From positions 1 to 5,037 of IMG/VR virus record IMGVR_UViG_2563366883_000001: a stretch of 5,037 nucleotides of DNA; one strand, given 5' to 3'. The notes under the pieces are model-generated. The model searched no databases and was not told the DNA's origin. It saw only the letters and a list, made by a program, of their open reading frames with translations. The position numbers and the translations under genes were made by a program. This document shows positions 1-5,037 of the stretch, piece after piece. Each line of letters begins with the position of its first letter. Positions within the stretch are counted from its first letter, which is position 1. The DNA comes from a virus. Lineage: Duplodnaviria; Heunggongvirae; Uroviricota; Caudoviricetes.

Positions 1-65
1 ACGAACGCCGGAAGGCAGCTGGTTTTATTTGAGTCTGAGAAACGATTTTGTCGGAGGAAATTTTA

Positions 66-782
66 ATGGAAACCGTATTTGACGCACTGAAAGCACTGAA
101 AAGAGCCTCTTCACAGGTAGTGGCGGCCCGCCTTGGAATCAGCCGTGAAGATGCGGTCAACGAACTGTGGAAACTGAAGCGCCGCGGTGAAGCGGATAAC
201 AAGGGTTCGATGTGGTGGCTGATTCAGGCTGGTGAAAGTGAACCGGTGTCACCGGTACCGAAAGTGACAGCGCAAATGCTGACTGAGGCGATTGAACAAC
301 ATGGCCCACAAACGGCGGATGAGCTGGCACTGATGTTCGGGATTACCTCCCGCCGGGCGAATTCATCGCTGGCCATGGCAATCAGCAAAGGGCGTCTGAT
401 TCGCGTGAATCAGGGTGGTAAATTTCGTTACTGCATACCGGGCGCTGATTTACCGGCAGAGCCGGAAGCTGCATCCGTAGCGGAAACCGATGGTAAAGCC
501 TTTCCTCAGCCAGCAGGTGTTGCGTTACCAGTACAGGAAATGATGGCACAGGAAGAAATGAAAACAGAAATCGTGGAAGACATTGTGAGGTTACAGCCAT
601 CGATCACCGAAATGAAAGCAGATGACCTGATTCTACCATCGCTGCATGTGGCTAACCGCGAGCTGCGCCGGGCGAAAAGTGATGTCCAGAAGTGGGAGCG
701 AGTCTGTGCTGCGCTGCGGGAACTGAACAAACACAGGGATATTCTCCGGGATATTACCGCCACCAGAGAGCAGCAGCGGTGA
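66..782 (+). CDS. Hypothetical phage protein with two winged-helix-like segments and a charged, coiled-coil-like C-terminus
   Basis: ORF-track frame 48..782. I place the start at ATG 66 because GGAGG at 53-57 sits 8 nt upstream; the TTG at 48 has no SD. Two similar segments (aa ~8-45 and ~76-120) each read like a small wHTH (e.g. [15 protein letters not shown] and [19 protein letters not shown]). Stop TGA 780-782 overlaps the next GTG start. Family not recognised. Confidence 0.6.
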
Positions 783-1096
783 GTGGCTGGAAGAAGTGGC
801 GCTGGGCTGAAATCCTGATACTCCGGCAGTGTGCGGGAACGATGAGAGTCGAAAGCATCGGTTATCTGATTGGTCGTAGTGAGTCAGCCGTCAGGACGAA
901 AGCGCGGGAACTGGGTATCAGCATGATTTTACGGGGTGATTTTCACCCGTCGGCAAAATATTCACAGCGTGATATTGAGCTGGCGCGGCAACTGCATCAG
1001 CGTGGCGTACCCCGACGGGAAATTGCCGAAAAGTTTGGGATGAAGTTGGGCGCAGTGAATAACTACGTTTATTTCGACAGGAGGGTTCAGGAGTGA
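779..1096 (+). CDS. Small HTH DNA-binding protein (GcrA-N-terminal-like / sigma-70 region 4-like pattern)
   Basis: GTG 779 overlaps the upstream stop (GTGA). From this start the protein begins [13 protein letters not shown]...[24 protein letters not shown], which matches the W-x-x-E...I-x-x-x-L-G-x-x-S-x-x-A-V-x-x-K-x-x-x-L-G-[LI]-S pattern I recall from GcrA-type HTH domains. ATG 842 is an alternative start but would cut off the first helix. Weak SD-like AGAGAG at 765-770. Confidence 0.5.
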
Positions 1097-1395
1097 GGGT
1101 GAGGATTTATATCGCCGGTCCGATGACGGGATATGAAAATTTCAACCGCGAGGCGTTTCACAGGGCGGAAGATGCGCTGAAACGGGAAGGGCATACCGTT
1201 TTAAACCCGGCAGTACTTCCGGACGGGCTGACTCAACCACACTACATGGATATTTGCATGGCAATGCTCCGTTGCGTGGATGCGGTTTACATGCTGAAAG
1301 GCTGGCAGCAGTCGGCAGGTGCAAGGGCTGAGCTGGCACTGGCGGAGAAACTGGGCCATGCGGTGATTTTTCAGGAGGTGGGCAGTGAATATTGA
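1093..1395 (+). CDS. DUF4406 family protein (nucleoside 2-deoxyribosyltransferase-like fold)
   Basis: 100 aa with the N-terminal motif RIYIAGPMTG typical of DUF4406 / nucleoside 2-deoxyribosyltransferase-like proteins and an acidic residue in the C-terminal AELALAEKLG segment. GTG 1093 overlaps the upstream TGA; GTG 1099 is an alternative start. Confidence 0.75.
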   Translation: MRVRIYIAGPMTGYENFNREAFHRAEDALKREGHTVLNPAVLPDGLTQPHYMDICMAMLRCVDAVYMLKGWQQSAGARAELALAEKLGHAVIFQEVGSEY

Positions 1396-1624
1396 CCCGG
1401 CGATAACGATTGATATGGCCCTGAACACCGGCCTGGCACTTCTTGGTTATTTCTACATCATGTTCTGCAGCGGACGATGGCTGTCACTGTTGTTCATGAA
1501 AAAATGGAATAAACGCCGTAAGCAGGAGCAACGCCAGAAGGCAATGGATGCATTTTCGAAGCCTTCGGAATTGACGGCATGGAACCAGGGGATCCAGCTC
1601 GCGCAATCAGCAGAGGGGGTGTAG
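1385..1624 (+). CDS. Small membrane protein (one predicted TM helix, basic C-terminal tail)
   Basis: GTG 1385 preceded by AGGAGG at 1373-1378 (6-nt spacer). Hydrophobic stretch LNTGLALLGYFYIMFCSGRWLSLLF followed by a Lys/Arg-rich segment KKWNKRRKQEQRQK. Overlaps the upstream stop by 11 nt. Confidence 0.5.
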   Translation: MNIDPAITIDMALNTGLALLGYFYIMFCSGRWLSLLFMKKWNKRRKQEQRQKAMDAFSKPSELTAWNQGIQLAQSAEGV

Positions 1625-1654
1625 TAATCCTTGTATATCGGAGTGAAGAGAAAA

Positions 1655-1969
1655 ATGACGATCACAAAACAACGAGTAGAAAAAATCATATATCGCCATG
1701 AAATGGGACTGAACAGCGATGTCACTGCCGAAGAGGTTTATGACCTGGCTGTACTGGCGCTGAATTTATCAAATATCGCAAACCTGAAGCGATACGAGCT
1801 TGATATGGATGGTTGCGACTCGTGCGGTCAGGATTGTGGCGCAGATATGACTGAAGATCCTGATGGTGATTATGTCCTGTTTGATGACGTGGTTAAGTTG
1901 TTTGAATTTGATACAACCACTCAAAAGTTAGAAATCCCGGCAAAGGAGGCAGCCAGTGAGCAAGATTGA
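1655..1969 (+). CDS. Hypothetical acidic phage protein
   Basis: ORF-track frame 1631..1969. ATG 1655 chosen as start (purine-rich GAAGAG just upstream); the TTG 1631 and GTG 1643 alternatives are not excluded. C-terminal half is Asp/Glu-rich with a CDSCGQDCG cysteine cluster. Its 3' end overlaps the next gene's GTG start. Confidence 0.55.
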   Translation: MTITKQRVEKIIYRHEMGLNSDVTAEEVYDLAVLALNLSNIANLKRYELDMDGCDSCGQDCGADMTEDPDGDYVLFDDVVKLFEFDTTTQKLEIPAKEAASEQD

Positions 1970-2504
1970 CTATCAGGCACTGCGTGAAAAGGCAGAGAAA
2001 GCAACTAAAGGAAGCTACATCGTAGGGCATACATCTGTTAACCAGCACGGCAATTTAACAGGAGTTTTTGTTTGCCAAAAATGGAAAGGAGAACCCGGTG
2101 GCGTGATTGCGGAATGTCATATTAACTGCCTGATTGAAACAGATGCTCAGGCTTATGCAAACGCTGAATTCATAGCAGAGGCTAACCCGGCTACCGTGCT
2201 GGCACTGCTGGATGAACGGGAAAGAAACCTGCAATACATCAAAAGCCGCGATCAGGAGAACGAGGATATTGCGCTAACGGTAGGGAAGCTGCGCGTTGAG
2301 CTTGAAGCAGAAAAACAGCGGGCAAAAGTTCTATTTATGGAAAATGCTCGGCTTAAGTCAGGCATAGCCGGTCTGATACACCTCGGTATTCGATATGCAG
2401 ATGTTGAGGTCATGAAAATTGCTGGAGATGCCCAGCTTTCTACCCCATGCACTGACAGCATCATAAACAGCATTGCAACAGGCATTCGCATCAAAGGAGA
2501 GTGA
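1956..2504 (+). CDS. Ead/Ea22-like family protein
   Basis: GTG 1956 with AAGGAGG at 1943-1949 (6-nt spacer). Contains the segment NAEFIAEANPATVLALLDERE plus a coiled-coil-like stretch, which I recognise as typical of Ead/Ea22-like proteins of lambdoid phage early regions. Confidence 0.8.
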   Translation: MSKIDYQALREKAEKATKGSYIVGHTSVNQHGNLTGVFVCQKWKGEPGGVIAECHINCLIETDAQAYANAEFIAEANPATVLALLDERERNLQYIKSRDQENEDIALTVGKLRVELEAEKQRAKVLFMENARLKSGIAGLIHLGIRYADVEVMKIAGDAQLSTPCTDSIINSIATGIRIKGE

Positions 2505-2505
2505 T

Positions 2506-3021
2506 ATGGCGTTAACACACCACGAACTCTGTCAGATTGCGTACAAGTTCCTTAAGCGCAACGGGTTCAAGGTTTGCTTTCATGACCGCTTTGTTGCTGT
2601 AACCAGTACCGGAGAACAGCCAGATGCTATGGGATTCAGAAATTCAGCATCATGCCTGATAGAGGCGAAGTGTTCTCGTGCTGACTTGTTGGCAGATAGA
2701 AAAAAGCGTTTCCGTAAAAATCCCTCACTTGGCATGGGCGACTGGCGATTCTTTATTAGTGAGCCGGAAATTATTTCAGTTGAGGATTTACCTCCCGGCT
2801 GGGGATTACTTCACGTTGTTAACGGAAGAGTACGGAAAGTACATGGATGGCCCAGGGGTAATTGCTGTTGGGGTAATCCTGACGATAAGCCATTTACTGG
2901 GAATAAGCAGGTTGAATGCGATTACATGTTATCTGCATTAAGGCGCATGGAGTTGAGAGGGCACCTTAATGAAATATATGACGGTGTGATTGTTAATAAG
3001 AAAGAAGGAAACGCGGCATGA
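2506..3021 (+). CDS. PD-(D/E)xK-motif putative nuclease (possibly MmcB-like)
   Basis: ATG 2506 with AAGGAG at 2494-2499; the ATG at 2473 lacks an SD. Motif GEQPDAMGF ... CLIEAKCSRADLL fits E...PD...(D/E)xK of restriction-endonuclease-fold nucleases. Stop overlaps the next ATG (ATGA). Confidence 0.7.
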   Translation: MALTHHELCQIAYKFLKRNGFKVCFHDRFVAVTSTGEQPDAMGFRNSASCLIEAKCSRADLLADRKKRFRKNPSLGMGDWRFFISEPEIISVEDLPPGWGLLHVVNGRVRKVHGWPRGNCCWGNPDDKPFTGNKQVECDYMLSALRRMELRGHLNEIYDGVIVNKKEGNAA

Positions 3022-3926
3022 TCACTATTACCAAAGGGCGACTGCTGACAATCAAGCAGTGGCGCGAAACATACGGACCGGGTAGCAACGTTGTACTGCC
3101 AGCAGAAGAAGCGGAAGAACTGGCACGAATTGCACTGGTATCGCTGGAAGCAGAGCCGGTGGCAAAGATTATAGCTCATTACCCATTAGGAGTTGACGTA
3201 GGCAAACAAAAGTTCGTACAGGCCATTGGAGAGCTTCCTGACTTTGGCGGATATCTATTTGCCGCCCCGCCAGCGCCGGTAGTGCCGGAAGAAGCAACTC
3301 CGGAAAACGTAGAAATGCTCTCTGGCTATGTTTCCACGTACAAATTAACCGATAGCGAGCGCGATATTGCTGCCGAAATATGGAACGCCTGCCGCACCGA
3401 CATGCTTCAGTCCGGAAACTTTCGGGAAAGCAAGAATTCGTCAACCAATAATTTTCGGGAAATCCCGGAAGCGTCAACCAGCTCTCCGGTAACTCCGGCT
3501 CTTCTGCCTGGTGGTTTCACCATTGAGGAGGCGAAGGAATTACATGAAGACCTGGTACGCAGCCACATAAGCAAGGCCTTAAGTGGCGAAAAGATGAAAA
3601 AGAAAGATCGCGATGCTGATTTGCGCTGGATTCATGGCGTTATAGTTCAGGCAGCGTGGTTTGTAAAAGCATCACTGGAGCAGAATGCACTATCGGGCAA
3701 CTCTCCGGTAACTCCGGATGGTTGGATAAGCTGTAGTGAGCGAATGCCGGATGATGGTCAGCACGTAATTATTTTATGTGATGGCGCATTCGTTCTTTAT
3801 GCGCAATATCGAGACGGTGAGTTTTTTGATGTAGTCCGTAATGGTGATGAATTTTTCGAAACACAGAGCCGCAATGTAACCGACTGGATGCCGTTACCAG
3901 AACCGCCGCAGGAGGTGCGCCAATGA
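3018..3926 (+). CDS. DUF551 domain-containing mosaic phage protein
   Basis: C-terminus DGWISCSERMPDDGQHVIILCDGAFVLYAQYRDGEFFD...VTDWMPLPEPP matches the DUF551 signature (W-x-S...LP...THWMPLPEPP). SD AAGGAA at 3004-3009. Contains two in-frame 17-bp direct repeats, each encoding SPVTP. Confidence 0.8.
   Translation: MITITKGRLLTIKQWRETYGPGSNVVLPAEEAEELARIALVSLEAEPVAKIIAHYPLGVDVGKQKFVQAIGELPDFGGYLFAAPPAPVVPEEATPENVEMLSGYVSTYKLTDSERDIAAEIWNACRTDMLQSGNFRESKNSSTNNFREIPEASTSSPVTPALLPGGFTIEEAKELHEDLVRSHISKALSGEKMKKKDRDADLRWIHGVIVQAAWFVKASLEQNALSGNSPVTPDGWISCSERMPDDGQHVIILCDGAFVLYAQYRDGEFFDVVRNGDEFFETQSRNVTDWMPLPEPPQEVRQ
3482..3717 (+). repeat. Pair of 17-bp direct repeats (ctctccggtaactccgg) inside the DUF551 gene
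   Basis: Exact copies at 3482-3498 and 3701-3717, in the same reading frame, each encoding SPVTP. They flank a ~200-bp segment encoding a charged, helix-like module. Confidence 0.7.
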
Positions 3927-4006
3927 TCTGGCCTGAAGCATTTGCAATTACAGGCGTTGCTATGGCTATCGCTTTTTTAGTATATGTTATTTGTCGGTGT
4001 GGGTAA
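3923..4006 (+). CDS. Predicted 27-aa hydrophobic peptide (MIWPEAFAITGVAMAIAFLVYVICRCG)
   Basis: Not in the ORF track (too short). ATG 3923 overlaps the DUF551 stop (ATGA) and is preceded by GGAGG at 3911-3915 (7-nt spacer). Hand translation gives a single hydrophobic helix, stop TAA 4004-4006. Confidence 0.35.
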   Translation: MIWPEAFAITGVAMAIAFLVYVICRCG

Positions 4007-4041
4007 AAGCGTTCGCCGGGATTAACACCAAAGGAGGGAAT

Positions 4042-4146
4042 GTGTCGGATGATATCTCACTGGCAATGGAAGGTGCGCTGGCTGTTATTGCTGTTGTGGG
4101 TGTTTACTGCCTGGTTGTGTTTTTGATGGATCGACTAGGGAACTGA
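4042..4146 (+). CDS. Predicted 34-aa hydrophobic peptide (MSDDISLAMEGALAVIAVVGVYCLVVFLMDRLGN)
   Basis: Not in the ORF track. GTG 4042 follows AAGGAGGG at 4031-4038 (spacing short, 3-4 nt). Acidic N-terminus, one TM-like helix, charged C-terminus, stop TGA 4144-4146. A 28-aa peptide in another frame (ATG 4040..4126) uses the same SD; the start is ambiguous. Confidence 0.3.
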   Translation: MSDDISLAMEGALAVIAVVGVYCLVVFLMDRLGN

Positions 4147-4154
4147 ATTCATTA

Positions 4155-4176
4155 CGATATGGGAATTCCCATATCG
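4155..4176. repeat. 22-bp perfect palindrome cgatatgggaattcccatatcg centred on GAATTC
   Basis: Every position pairs across the centre at 4165/4166. Lies between the 34-aa small ORF and the predicted hok promoter. No U-tract on either side. Confidence 0.6.
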
Positions 4177-4187
4177 GGTAAAAACGG

Positions 4188-4216
4188 TTTGCGGTAAAGC
4201 GAGAGTTAAGTAGAAT
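4188..4216 (+). promoter_or_regulatory. Putative sigma-70 promoter of the hok/mok mRNA
   Basis: -35 TTGCGG (4189-4194), 16-nt spacer, -10 TAGAAT (4211-4216, 5/6 to consensus). The predicted start site near 4222-4224 coincides with the 5' segment that is complementary to the mRNA 3' end. Confidence 0.45.
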
Positions 4217-4234
4217 TGCTGCGGGTGCTTGAGG

Positions 4235-4270
4235 CTGTCTGCCTCGGGCATGCCACCGTAAGGCAGACAG
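4235..4270 (+). promoter_or_regulatory. hok mRNA leader stem-loop
   Basis: 10-bp perfect stem ctgtctgcct (4235-4244) / aggcagacag (4261-4270) with a 16-nt loop. Lies in the predicted 5' leader upstream of mok. Confidence 0.5.
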
Positions 4271-4277
4271 AGAAAAG

Positions 4278-4343
4278 CCCCAGTTAACATTATGCGTCTT
4301 GCAGGACGCTTAACATTAATCTGAGGCCAATTTCATGCTAGCC
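4278..4343 (-). ncRNA. sok: Predicted Sok-like antisense RNA (approximate bounds)
   Basis: Inferred from the antisense promoter and from the sokC/mokC arrangement I recall. Would be complementary to the mok start codon and SD (4321-4337). The minus strand has a small hairpin (plus coordinates 4294-4309) and a U-rich stretch from plus 4270-4278. Ends not determinable from sequence alone. Confidence 0.35.
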
Positions 4344-4547
4344 ACATGTAGGTTAGCCTCTTACACGCCGAAAGGCAAGGAGAAGCAGGCTATGAAGCAG
4401 CAAAAGGCGATGTTAGTCGCCCTGATCGTCATCTGTATTACCGTCATTGTGACGGCACTGGTAACGAGGAAAGACCTCTGCGAGGTACGAATCCGAACCG
4501 GCCAGACGGAGGTCACTGTCTTCACAGCTTACGAACCTGAGGAGTAA
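4335..4547 (+). CDS. mok: Mok-like regulatory reading frame (in-frame upstream extension of hok)
   Basis: 70-aa ORF from the track, MLATCRLASYTPKGKEKQA followed by the Hok sequence. As I recall, chromosomal Mok proteins such as MokC have this in-frame extended layout. GAGG at 4323-4326 lies 8 nt upstream of ATG 4335. Confidence 0.5.
   Translation: MLATCRLASYTPKGKEKQAMKQQKAMLVALIVICITVIVTALVTRKDLCEVRIRTGQTEVTVFTAYEPEE
4350..4378 (-). promoter_or_regulatory. Putative Sok antisense promoter
   Basis: On the minus strand: -35 TTGCCT (plus coordinates 4378-4373), 17-nt spacer, -10 TAACCT (4355-4350). Placed inside the 5' part of mok, where sok promoters sit in known hok loci. Confidence 0.35.
4392..4547 (+). 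CDS. hok: Hok/Gef family type I toxin, closest to HokD (RelF)
   Basis: 51 aa, MKQQKAMLVALIVICITVIVTALVTRKDLCEVRIRTGQTEVTVFTAYEPEE. From memory this is near-identical to E. coli HokD/RelF and very similar to HokC/Gef. AAGGAG at 4376-4381 lies 10 nt upstream of ATG 4392. Confidence 0.9.
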   Translation: MKQQKAMLVALIVICITVIVTALVTRKDLCEVRIRTGQTEVTVFTAYEPEE

Positions 4548-4615
4548 GAGACCTGGCGGGGGAGAAATCCCTCGCCACCTCTGATGAGTCAGGCATCCTC
4601 AACGCACCCGCACTT

Positions 4616-4642
4616 AACCCGCTTCGGCGGGTTTTGTTTTTT
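4616..4642 (+). terminator. Rho-independent terminator of the hok mRNA
   Basis: Stem aacccgc (4616-4622) / gcgggtt (4627-4633) with UUCG tetraloop (4623-4626), followed by the T-rich run ttttgtttttt through 4642. Confidence 0.8.
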
Positions 4643-4663
4643 CCTGGCATTCTGGTTTACAAT
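4634..4663 (+). promoter_or_regulatory. Possible sigma-70 promoter for the downstream gene
   Basis: -35 TTGTTT (4634-4639), 18-nt spacer, -10 TACAAT (4658-4663). Overlaps the terminator T-tract; weak evidence. Confidence 0.25.
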
Positions 4664-4714
4664 TCGCACGCCAGCCTGAACAACTGGCACCTGCTGCGCC
4701 AGCAGAGACAACCG

Positions 4715-4993
4715 ATGGCGCACGATACCAAATTATACAATTCTGATAATTCAGCCGTCTTTGCCAGCAGGCACGGGCGGCGTTCTCATGCATTCAAATC
4801 TGACAGGTTACAGCACGCCCCATGCACTGAAGAACAGGCCGAATGGCTGATTCAGAACTACCGCAGACGTGGGTATGAGTTTAGGAAAACCCTCAGCCTC
4901 GATTATCGTCACTGGATAATCTCCGTCAGGCTTCCTTACTCTGAACGCCCACCGCGTCCGTCCCGCACATTCCTGCAACGCATCTGGAGGTAA
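4715..4993 (+). CDS. Hypothetical basic protein (92 aa)
   Basis: ORF-track frame 4634..4993. The TTG at 4634 lies inside the terminator T-tract, so I take the first ATG at 4715 as start. Arg-rich, no motif recognised. Sits immediately downstream of hok in the same orientation, as rem does relative to hokD in the K-12 Qin prophage, but I cannot confirm homology. Confidence 0.4.
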   Translation: MAHDTKLYNSDNSAVFASRHGRRSHAFKSDRLQHAPCTEEQAEWLIQNYRRRGYEFRKTLSLDYRHWIISVRLPYSERPPRPSRTFLQRIWR

Positions 4994-4994
4994 C

Positions 4995-5037
4995 GTGCGG
5001 GTATTACTTCGACCTGTTCTGGTACCGGAACTCGGGC
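4995..5037 (+). CDS. 5' fragment of a further ORF running off the window end
   Basis: GTG 4995 preceded by GGAGG at 4986-4990 (4-nt spacer); open to the end of the window (VRVLLRPVLVPELG...). Only 14 codons visible. Confidence 0.25.
   Translation, partial: MRVLLRPVLVPELG

Follow-up and report, generated by a model that had tools for sequence, protein, structure and literature searches.

A YdaW/DUF1627 protein with tandem winged helices and a double helix-turn-helix protein encoded in the early-right operon of a lambdoid Escherichia coli prophage

We asked what two overlapping genes near the start of a 5,037-nt stretch of tailed-phage DNA (IMG/VR record IMGVR_UViG_2563366883_000001, positions 1 to 5,037; hereafter the window) encode and in what part of the phage program they act. 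Gene 1 runs from the ATG at position 66 to the TGA at 780–782 and encodes 238 amino acids, and gene 2 runs from the GTG at 779 to the TGA at 1,094–1,096 and encodes 105 amino acids. The initial annotation had described them as a pair of DNA-binding proteins at the head of an operon, without a nameable family, that could be early regulators or host-factor mimics.

The window was identical at 5036 of 5037 positions to a prophage of E. coli JE86-ST05 (NZ_AP022815), and the RefSeq gene coordinates in that prophage were exactly those of both open reading frames. According to the annotation of this near-identical genome, positions 1–32 on the plus strand are the 3' end of the gene for replication protein P, a helicase loader (locus 11571-12032, ending at window position 32). 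Its stop codon is the TGA at 30–32, and positions 3–32 translate as ERRKAAGFI followed by the stop. A scan for promoters and terminators, in which the counts were at chance level, found no sigma-70-like promoter upstream of gene 1 and only one weak 5-bp hairpin, which lay inside the end of P; a repeat search of the window turned up none of operator type within the pair or close to it. As P ends at position 32 and gene 1 has no such promoter before it, we assign the pair to the early-right operon; the impression of an operon head arose because the edge of the window cuts inside P. In the NZ_AP022815 annotation, the left part of the prophage contains int, exo and dicB and leads to a cI-like gene on the minus strand. 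It is followed by a cro-like gene, YdaT, an O-like gene with a DnaT domain, P, the DUF1627 gene (gene 1), the HTH gene (gene 2), DUF4406 and DUF4752, and the distal part holds Ea22, DUF551, hokD, DUF968, RusA and Q. That is, the cro-like, YdaT, O-like and P genes lie upstream of the pair, and one co-directional block runs on to Q; all open reading frames of this run in the window are on the plus strand. The pair is thus situated mid-operon in the early-right (pR-type) unit of a Rac/CP-933P-like lambdoid E. coli prophage. Its position directly after the replication genes is the slot of ren on the lambda map, and the pair opens an accessory (nin/ren-type) region, not a regulatory operon head.

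This setting also bears on the proposal that the two proteins are early regulators. The cI-like, cro-like, YdaT (cII-equivalent) and Q genes stand elsewhere in the prophage, indicating that the pair does not supply the core switch regulators, and gene 2 is replaced or absent in sister prophages. We found no evidence for host-factor mimicry.

Both genes were examined for coding selection. A Shine–Dalgarno sequence, GGAGG, was read at 54–58 on the plus strand, 7 nt before the ATG of gene 1. Across distinct homologous loci, substitutions at codon positions 1, 2 and 3 numbered 300, 308 and 679 in gene 1 and 159, 125 and 370 in gene 2. In the annotated frame, synonymous and non-synonymous codon changes amounted to 526 and 538 in gene 1 and to 317 and 235 in gene 2, compared with 180/899 and 177/922 (gene 1) and 63/500 and 38/508 (gene 2) in the shifted frames; synonymous changes were therefore three to eight times commoner in the annotated frames. 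The concentration of substitutions at the third codon position of the annotated frame argues that both genes are real and under coding selection. Gene 2 starts on the stop codon of gene 1 in a GTGA overlap (779–782, plus strand), as had been noted initially, and this junction was kept in all 61 loci that contained both genes, suggesting that translation of the two genes is coupled. A second GTGA overlap at 1,093–1,096 joins gene 2 to the next gene of the coupled chain, which encodes a DUF4406 protein resembling nucleoside 2-deoxyribosyltransferases (1,093–1,395, plus strand; PF14359, E 2.3e-36; phrog_355). We assigned the start of gene 2 to the GTG at 779 and not to an internal Met22, since residues 4–21 show conservation among homologues and make up helix 1 of the first HTH.

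These substitution patterns bear on whether the pair is a functionless, decaying remnant of a defective prophage. Three downstream genes of the same prophage (DUF4752, Ea22 and DUF551) are annotated as frameshifted or partial, which agrees with decay. However, both open reading frames of the pair are intact, their homologues are widespread and also occur in inducible phages, and the strong third-position bias of both genes largely refutes the idea, to which we give next to no credence.

Gene 1 (66–782, plus strand; pI 6.9) could be named, contrary to the initial view. It matched the Pfam family DUF1627 (PF07789) far above threshold (E 5.9e-82; 273.5 bits against a gathering cutoff of 28.1), with model positions 1–155 of 155 aligned to residues 76–230, and it matched phrog_630 over residues 1–237 (E 4e-116). 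Its RefSeq entry is WP_001529168.1, 'DUF1627 domain-containing protein', and phage records call it YdaW. Homologues formed 2303 clusters at 90% identity and, in an exhaustive search of representatives, 155 clusters at 50% identity, with full-length members down to approximately 22% identity; judged from the latter number of clusters, the family appears small. Neither protein of the pair had an NCBIfam match above cutoff. Searches of the PDB with the single protein sequences of genes 1 and 2 returned designed helical repeat and TPR/LGN matches only, which were discarded as spurious. Short or fused DUF1627 variants were also seen, e.g., with DUF1376 or an O-like N-terminus joined to a DUF1627 C-terminus; they look like products of truncation or of fusion by deletion in prophages undergoing decay and give no functional clue.

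We aligned 33 family members (21–72% identity) and ran AlphaFold2 (AF2) on this alignment. Gene 1 showed the architecture of the family, i.e., an N-terminal winged helix outside the Pfam model, a second winged helix, a variable linker, and a C-terminal motif and helix, and, like the family, it occupied an early-operon location beside replication or recombination genes in a temperate phage. The model confirmed the two predicted winged-helix segments, each with the topology H-E-H-H-E-E and a pLDDT above 94 (94–98 overall). The first, WH1 (residues 1–55; 66–230, plus strand), comprises helices 4–11, 16–23 and 27–39 and strands 13–15, 43–46 and 49–52 (pLDDT 95–98). It is better conserved across the family than any other part of the protein, with L34 and W50 invariant among the 33 members; the polar residues of its 'recognition' helix are not conserved, and it is near-neutral to acidic, with a family mean net charge of -1.6 and an acidic character in most members. 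The second, WH2 (residues 66–125; 261–440, plus strand), comprises helices 69–79, 84–91 and 95–107 and strands 112–116 and 119–123 (pLDDT 94–97). Its family net charge is +4.1 +/- 1.9, being basic in 32 of the 33 members and neutral in the remaining one. Conserved positions include R96 (29/33), S100 (28/33), Arg or Lys at 113 (32/33) and a Lys or Arg at the wing turn (118/119), and a PDB profile search returned weak matches of WH2 to AspA, MarR and Z-alpha winged helices. WH2 is accordingly a candidate in our model for the nucleic-acid-binding unit of gene 1.

The second half of the protein is of a different kind. WH2 is followed by an acidic, length-variable, disordered linker (residues 126–172; 441–581, plus strand; pLDDT 49–61, within a low-pLDDT stretch spanning 126–185). 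Its net charge is -9 in gene 1 and -5.1 on average in the family, where its length ranges from 21 to 64 residues. Next comes a conserved short motif (residues 173–192; 582–641, plus strand) with the consensus V..IPSFT....DDLIIP in the 33-member alignment, in which P178 and P191 are each kept in 29/33, F180 in 22/31 and L188 in 21/33; owing to its low pLDDT, this is probably a linear motif. The coiled-coil-like tail proposed initially corresponds to two basic amphipathic helices, 193–222 and 224–237, modelled with a pLDDT above 90 (91–94) within the C-terminal segment (residues 193–238 and stop; 642–782, plus strand). The family charge of the tail is +6.2; R201 is invariant, R202 and K204 are nearly so, and hydrophobic residues recur at a spacing of 3–4. 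The predicted helices are probably an oligomerisation or partner-binding module.

Foldseek searches against the PDB with the gene 1 model retrieved the tandem winged-helix proteins DIP2311, ScpB, UFL1/DDRGK1, SelB, ESCRT-II and AlkX (E 3.5e-5 to 1e-2), and searches against viral models retrieved MarR-, TrmB- and ArsR-like phage proteins as well as some Z-alpha-containing proteins. A winged-helix fold is thus no proof that gene 1 binds DNA, since the tandem proteins matched best include several that bind other proteins (ScpB, ESCRT-II, UFL1/DDRGK1) or RNA (SelB). These matches count against our main explanation, as do the acidic character of WH1 in most members, the lack of conserved polar residues in its 'recognition' helix and the lack of operator-like repeats in the window. 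Judging from the models, DNA binding by gene 1 is plausible through the basic WH2 only, and we hold this with only moderate confidence.

The Z-alpha matches raised the question of whether gene 1 uses its winged helices to bind nucleic acid in the left-handed Z form (Z-DNA or Z-RNA). The family profile gave weak matches to ADAR1 Z-alpha/Z-beta and to ZBP1 (E 5e-6 for the whole sequence, 0.04–5.6 for single stretches), and the viral fold matches (E 3e-5 to 7e-3) included CyHV ORF112, poxvirus E3-like proteins and one protein with a 'Z-binding domain'. Gene 1 also shares the a1-b1-a2-a3-b2-b3 topology, and the invariant W50 occupies the position of the wing Trp. The Z-alpha signature consists of Asn173 and Tyr177 on helix 3 and Pro192-Pro193 in the wing (ADAR1 numbering). 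Among the 33 members, however, the position equivalent to the Tyr is Arg in 18, Trp in 7 and Gln in 3 (WH1) or Ala in 14, Arg in 8 and Thr in 3 (WH2); the position equivalent to the Asn is Asn in 14/33 in WH1 and Ala, Thr or Val in WH2; and no Pro-Pro occurs in the wing, in which only the Trp is kept. In addition, MarR, ArsR and AspA domains match gene 1 equally well or better. We rejected a Z-alpha identity on these signature residues and regard it as very improbable.

Gene 2 (779–1,096, plus strand; pI 10.3) is a 'hypothetical protein' in RefSeq (WP_001529167.1). It matched phrog_323 ('transcriptional regulator'; E 2.3e-25), and its homologues, which formed 150 clusters at 90% identity, are mostly named 'DNA-binding protein' by NCBI; homologues also occur in the P1-like phage D6, in Mu-like inserts, and in Serratia and Vibrio phages. 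The AF2 model (mean pLDDT 83) contained six helices arranged as two three-helix HTH units. The HTH assignment was therefore sound, whereas the single compact domain of the initial annotation was replaced by two units joined by a linker of approximately 17 residues. Unit 1 (residues 9–45; 803–913, plus strand) consists of helices 9–18, 24–31 and 35–45 (pLDDT 92–94), and unit 2 (residues 63–103; 965–1,087, plus strand) of helices 63–74, 79–86 and 90–103. All Pfam HTH matches of gene 2 were below the gathering threshold, the best being Sigma70_r4_2 (21.3 against 25.7); the sub-threshold matches to Sigma70_r4_2, HTH_7 and HTH_23 fall in unit 2. The PDB profile search likewise returned nothing for gene 2 beyond weak HTH matches of a generic kind. 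A GcrA-like reading of unit 1 was dropped, as Pfam, the PDB profile search and Foldseek gave it no support. The top Foldseek matches were Cbp1 (2lvs), Tc3 (1u78), Pax5 (1k78), Mos1 (3hos) and the AraC DNA-binding domain. Flexibility of the link between the two HTH units made the whole-chain E values weak (best 0.017), and the superposition of a single HTH was good (IstA transposase on unit 2, rmsd 0.7 A over 38 columns). With 20 Lys and Arg against 11 Asp and Glu, the predicted fold and the charge suggest that gene 2 likely binds DNA.

We then compared the neighbours of gene 1 across phages. The set comprised 80 IMG/VR viral contigs retrieved with the single protein as query, in which gene 1 was 88–100% identical, i.e., close relatives only; the contexts of distant members came from six single look-ups. 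A helicase loader preceded gene 1 in all 76 of the 80 contigs that had upstream flank; it was of the lambda-P type in 36 and of the DnaC/YdaV type in 40. On the downstream side of the 80, gene 2 followed in 61, a winged-HTH gene annotated DUF977/'Ren-like exclusion protein' in 9, and DUF4406 directly in 9. Rac and Shigella phage 75/02 Stx likewise have a helicase loader ahead of the gene 1 homologue. One family member with 22% identity again lies behind P, and a different small gene, of the Rrf2-type winged-HTH class, overlaps it; other distant members follow DnaC-like or O-like genes. The distant members that follow a loader include L086 and L090. In another kind of element (L085, L087 and L089), an Exonuc_VIII (RecE-like) gene lies upstream, and its end is overlapped by the DUF1627 gene; the partial upstream reading frame of L085 was identified by PHROG exonuclease matches only. 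A small HTH gene recurs right after gene 1 homologues. The comparison indicates that gene 1 has a fixed place beside DNA-metabolism genes and no fixed partner, which argues against a specific complex of gene 1 with either the loader or gene 2.

This fixed place could also be read as a function: gene 1 may be an accessory factor of replication or recombination that works with the helicase loader or a RecE-type exonuclease, e.g., by tethering it to DNA. The constant adjacency to a loader in the close relatives, in Rac, in the Shigella phage and in the two distant loci, as well as the overlap with RecE-like genes, speaks for this reading. However, gene 1 copies 100% identical to that of the window lay behind a lambda-P type loader in 4 loci and behind a DnaC type in 8, and because these loaders are non-homologous, a specific loader partnership is argued against. 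Lambdoid synteny, moreover, largely reflects a fixed order of modules and, to our knowledge, a DUF1627 gene is missing from lambda and many other lambdoid phages, which replicate nonetheless. We consider such a role improbable.

Literature searches found no functional study of DUF1627, PF07789 or ydaW. YdaW is listed as a MarR-type transcription factor, by prediction, in Ishihama's catalogue (PMC4797297) and in PMC9308461, and DUF1627 appears in the literature near the PasA and PasC sRNAs as a synteny marker only. The overexpression of K-12 ydaW was scored as a validated-class 'blocker' of the retron-Sen2 toxin RcaT (bioRxiv 10.1101/2020.06.22.160242), in a screen in which other prophage genes, chaperones and proteases also scored. 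Among the papers that the search for ydaW yielded, no other one contains this result.

A further alternative is that gene 1 is not a DNA-binding protein but a protein-binding adaptor or anti-defence factor whose tandem winged-helix scaffold sequesters a host protein such as a toxin or an effector of abortive infection. The protein that acted on RcaT was the C-terminally truncated K-12 form, which has WH1 and WH2 only, and the effect needs no DNA binding, a point against our main explanation. The protein-binding scaffolds among the top structural neighbours agree with an adaptor, as does WH1, which is the most conserved domain, including its surface residues, yet is acidic on average. Ren counters Rex exclusion, and gene 1 lies in the lambda ren slot, with a weak match of WH2 to phrog_142 (E 6.4e-5). 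On the other hand, WH2 is consistently basic, and its conserved wing Lys and helix 3 Arg and Ser resemble those of winged helices that bind nucleic acids. PADLOC gave only a chance-level match for gene 1 (SWIM_XIII, E 0.008) and none for gene 2, and the retron evidence is an overexpression screen with hits among chaperones and proteases. The MarR-type listing of YdaW, itself a prediction, also points away from an adaptor. We judge this alternative unlikely, although it deserves some weight. A bolder extension, which we hold to be quite improbable, is that in lambdoid and related temperate phages the post-loader slot holds a recurrent two-gene counter-defence cassette, in which YdaW/DUF1627 is combined with one of several small proteins of the HTH or winged-HTH class that can replace each other. 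This second gene would be of the bipartite HTH, DUF977/Ren-like or Rrf2-like type, and this variable partner could set specificity; for example, the tandem winged helices of YdaW could neutralise abortive-infection toxins (retron RcaT) or Rex-type exclusion.

We instead favour, with a probability of roughly 0.6, the explanation that genes 1 and 2 are coupled delayed-early accessory genes, in which gene 2 is a DNA binder and gene 1 contacts nucleic acid through WH2; fold, charge and context point to it. Under this explanation, both proteins would be made only from the early-right transcript, after induction or infection, by coupled translation. Gene 2 would bind DNA as a monomer whose two HTH units enter adjacent major grooves. 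Gene 1 would touch nucleic acid through WH2 and would self-associate or hold a partner through its C-terminal helices, perhaps also through WH1. The pair would serve accessory ('nin/ren-slot') functions and not the core switch, and neither protein would require the other, or the helicase loader, as its partner.

Both genes are already known: RefSeq annotates them, and their families are catalogued and occur in prophages of E. coli, Shigella and Salmonella by the thousand. What the analysis adds is a clearer picture, in which full-length YdaW/DUF1627 consists of tandem winged helices, an acidic linker and a conserved basic helical tail that is absent from the K-12 copy, and in which a double-HTH protein is often encoded next to it. 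Prophages of pathogenic E. coli very commonly carry DUF1627, and the family has one hit in a retron-toxin screen; it is thus a reasonable, low-priority candidate for functional work.

Finally, we compared the pair with known systems. In the Pfam, PHROG and NCBIfam searches, neither protein showed homology to the lambda-type core regulators CI, Cro, CII and Q, for which the prophage has separate genes. Each winged helix of gene 1 superposes on those of MarR, ArsR and AspA at an rmsd of 1.2–2.2 A. However, gene 1 had no MarR match in Pfam, its TrmB, HTH_11 and FeoC matches were below the gathering cutoff, and the AF2 model lacks the N- and C-terminal dimerisation helices of MarR and has tandem winged helices, a disordered linker and a helical tail instead. 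The sub-threshold Pfam matches and the missing helices argue against placing gene 1 among the MarR family factors. The best whole-protein matches were tandem winged-helix scaffolds such as ScpB, ESCRT-II and the SelB C-terminus (3w6j, E 1.9e-4; 2z99, 2.1e-4; 2zme, 1.8e-3; 1wsu, 1.2e-3), with low TM-scores (0.2–0.25 of the query) and a high rmsd because the orientation of the domains is undefined; these proteins share no sequence similarity with gene 1 and have other partners and another biology.

Gene 2 has a plan like that of the Tc3 transposase (1u78), Mos1, the Pax paired domain and Sulfolobus Cbp1 (2lvs), i.e., two HTH units and a flexible linker in approximately 100 residues. Unlike Tc3 and Mos1, it is a stand-alone phage protein without the catalytic domain of a transposase. 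Sequence similarity to these bipartite HTH domains is not significant, the best being 2lvs (profile E 0.0011; Foldseek E 0.017); the modelled fold plan fits them, with family membership below curated thresholds. Lambda Ren and the 'Ren-like exclusion protein' (phrog_142/DUF977, e.g., LygF of phage Rac) share the slot after the replication genes, and DUF977 proteins take the place of gene 2 behind near-identical copies of gene 1. Gene 1 has no BLASTP similarity to LygF, the two-HTH fold class of gene 2 differs from the winged HTH of DUF977, and the exclusion function of DUF977/phrog_142 is annotation only. The YdaW of the K-12 Rac prophage is homologous to gene 1 (58% identity over residues 1–139) and lies in the same position, directly after the helicase loader YdaV. 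The K-12 protein has 186 amino acids and comprises WH1 and WH2 only; a deletion in Rac has removed its IPSFT motif and C-terminal helices, whereas gene 1 is the complete form.

We compared the DUF1627 gene together with the gene that follows it in three related loci (L086, 5001–6004; L002, 2741–3965; and L003, 5001–6217; each in the coordinates of its own locus). Time and again, the next gene encoded a small HTH or winged-HTH protein, and the families to which these proteins belonged were unrelated: in the window it was the bipartite HTH, Rac and 75/02 Stx carry a DUF977/'Ren-like' protein, and a distant relative has one of Rrf2 type. The DUF1627 gene and the small HTH gene after it frequently overlapped by 4 nt. 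The position looks like a recurrent slot for a small HTH gene rather than one half of a fixed gene pair.

In the window, the bipartite HTH gene ends in a second GTGA overlap, at the start of a gene for a DUF4406 protein resembling nucleoside 2-deoxyribosyltransferases (window 1093–1395, + strand; PF14359, E = 2.3e-36; phrog_355). In 9 of the 80 related IMG/VR contigs, DUF4406 came directly after the DUF1627 gene, the intervening HTH gene being absent.

Within window 1385–1969 (+), the DUF4752 ORF (1385–1624; PF15944, E = 9e-24) stops early at position 1624; the RefSeq gene extends over 1385–1701 and is labelled frameshifted. The Ea22-like ORF (1956–2504, +) and the 302-aa DUF551 ORF (3018–3926, +) are intact in the window and flagged as partial by RefSeq. 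This stretch of the prophage may reflect decay or inconsistent annotation. The DUF551 coding sequence carries a direct repeat at 3417–3480 (+; 31-nt unit, spacing 33 nt, 77% identity) and another within 3479–3717 (+; 20-nt unit at 3479 and 3698, 95% identity); these short repeats suggest that the protein contains a linker with internal repeats.

A 171-aa ORF of unknown function (2506–3021, +) matched phrog_9263 (E = 1e-120) and phrog_631, and weakly a 'DNA repair protein' PHROG (E = 0.0046). By eye, its …PDAMGF…LIEAKCSRAD… resembles a PD-(D/E)xK nuclease motif. For this region of the near-identical JE86-ST05 genome, RefSeq has a frameshifted fragment only.

Window 4223–4547 (+) is a complete type I toxin–antitoxin locus of the hok/sok type. 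Rfam sok scored 117 bits at 4223–4397 (gathering score, 59), and the interval 4335–4547 contains a Hok/Gef ORF (PF01848, E = 2.9e-22); RefSeq places hokD at 4392–4547. A terminator-like hairpin (4616–4633) lies 3' of the Hok/Gef ORF. The sole base differing from JE86-ST05, at 4342, falls inside this locus.

Distant DUF1627 members (24–29% identical) start within the final codons of a RecE-like Exonuc_VIII gene (L087, 2026–4011; L089, 1401–3560; and L085, 2–802, where the upstream ORF is partial and its exonuclease identity comes from PHROG matches only). Elements with this overlap form a second kind, with Phage_GPA or Phage_ASH genes close by. In Rac, the position after Exonuc_VIII that distant DUF1627 genes hold in these elements is occupied by recT.
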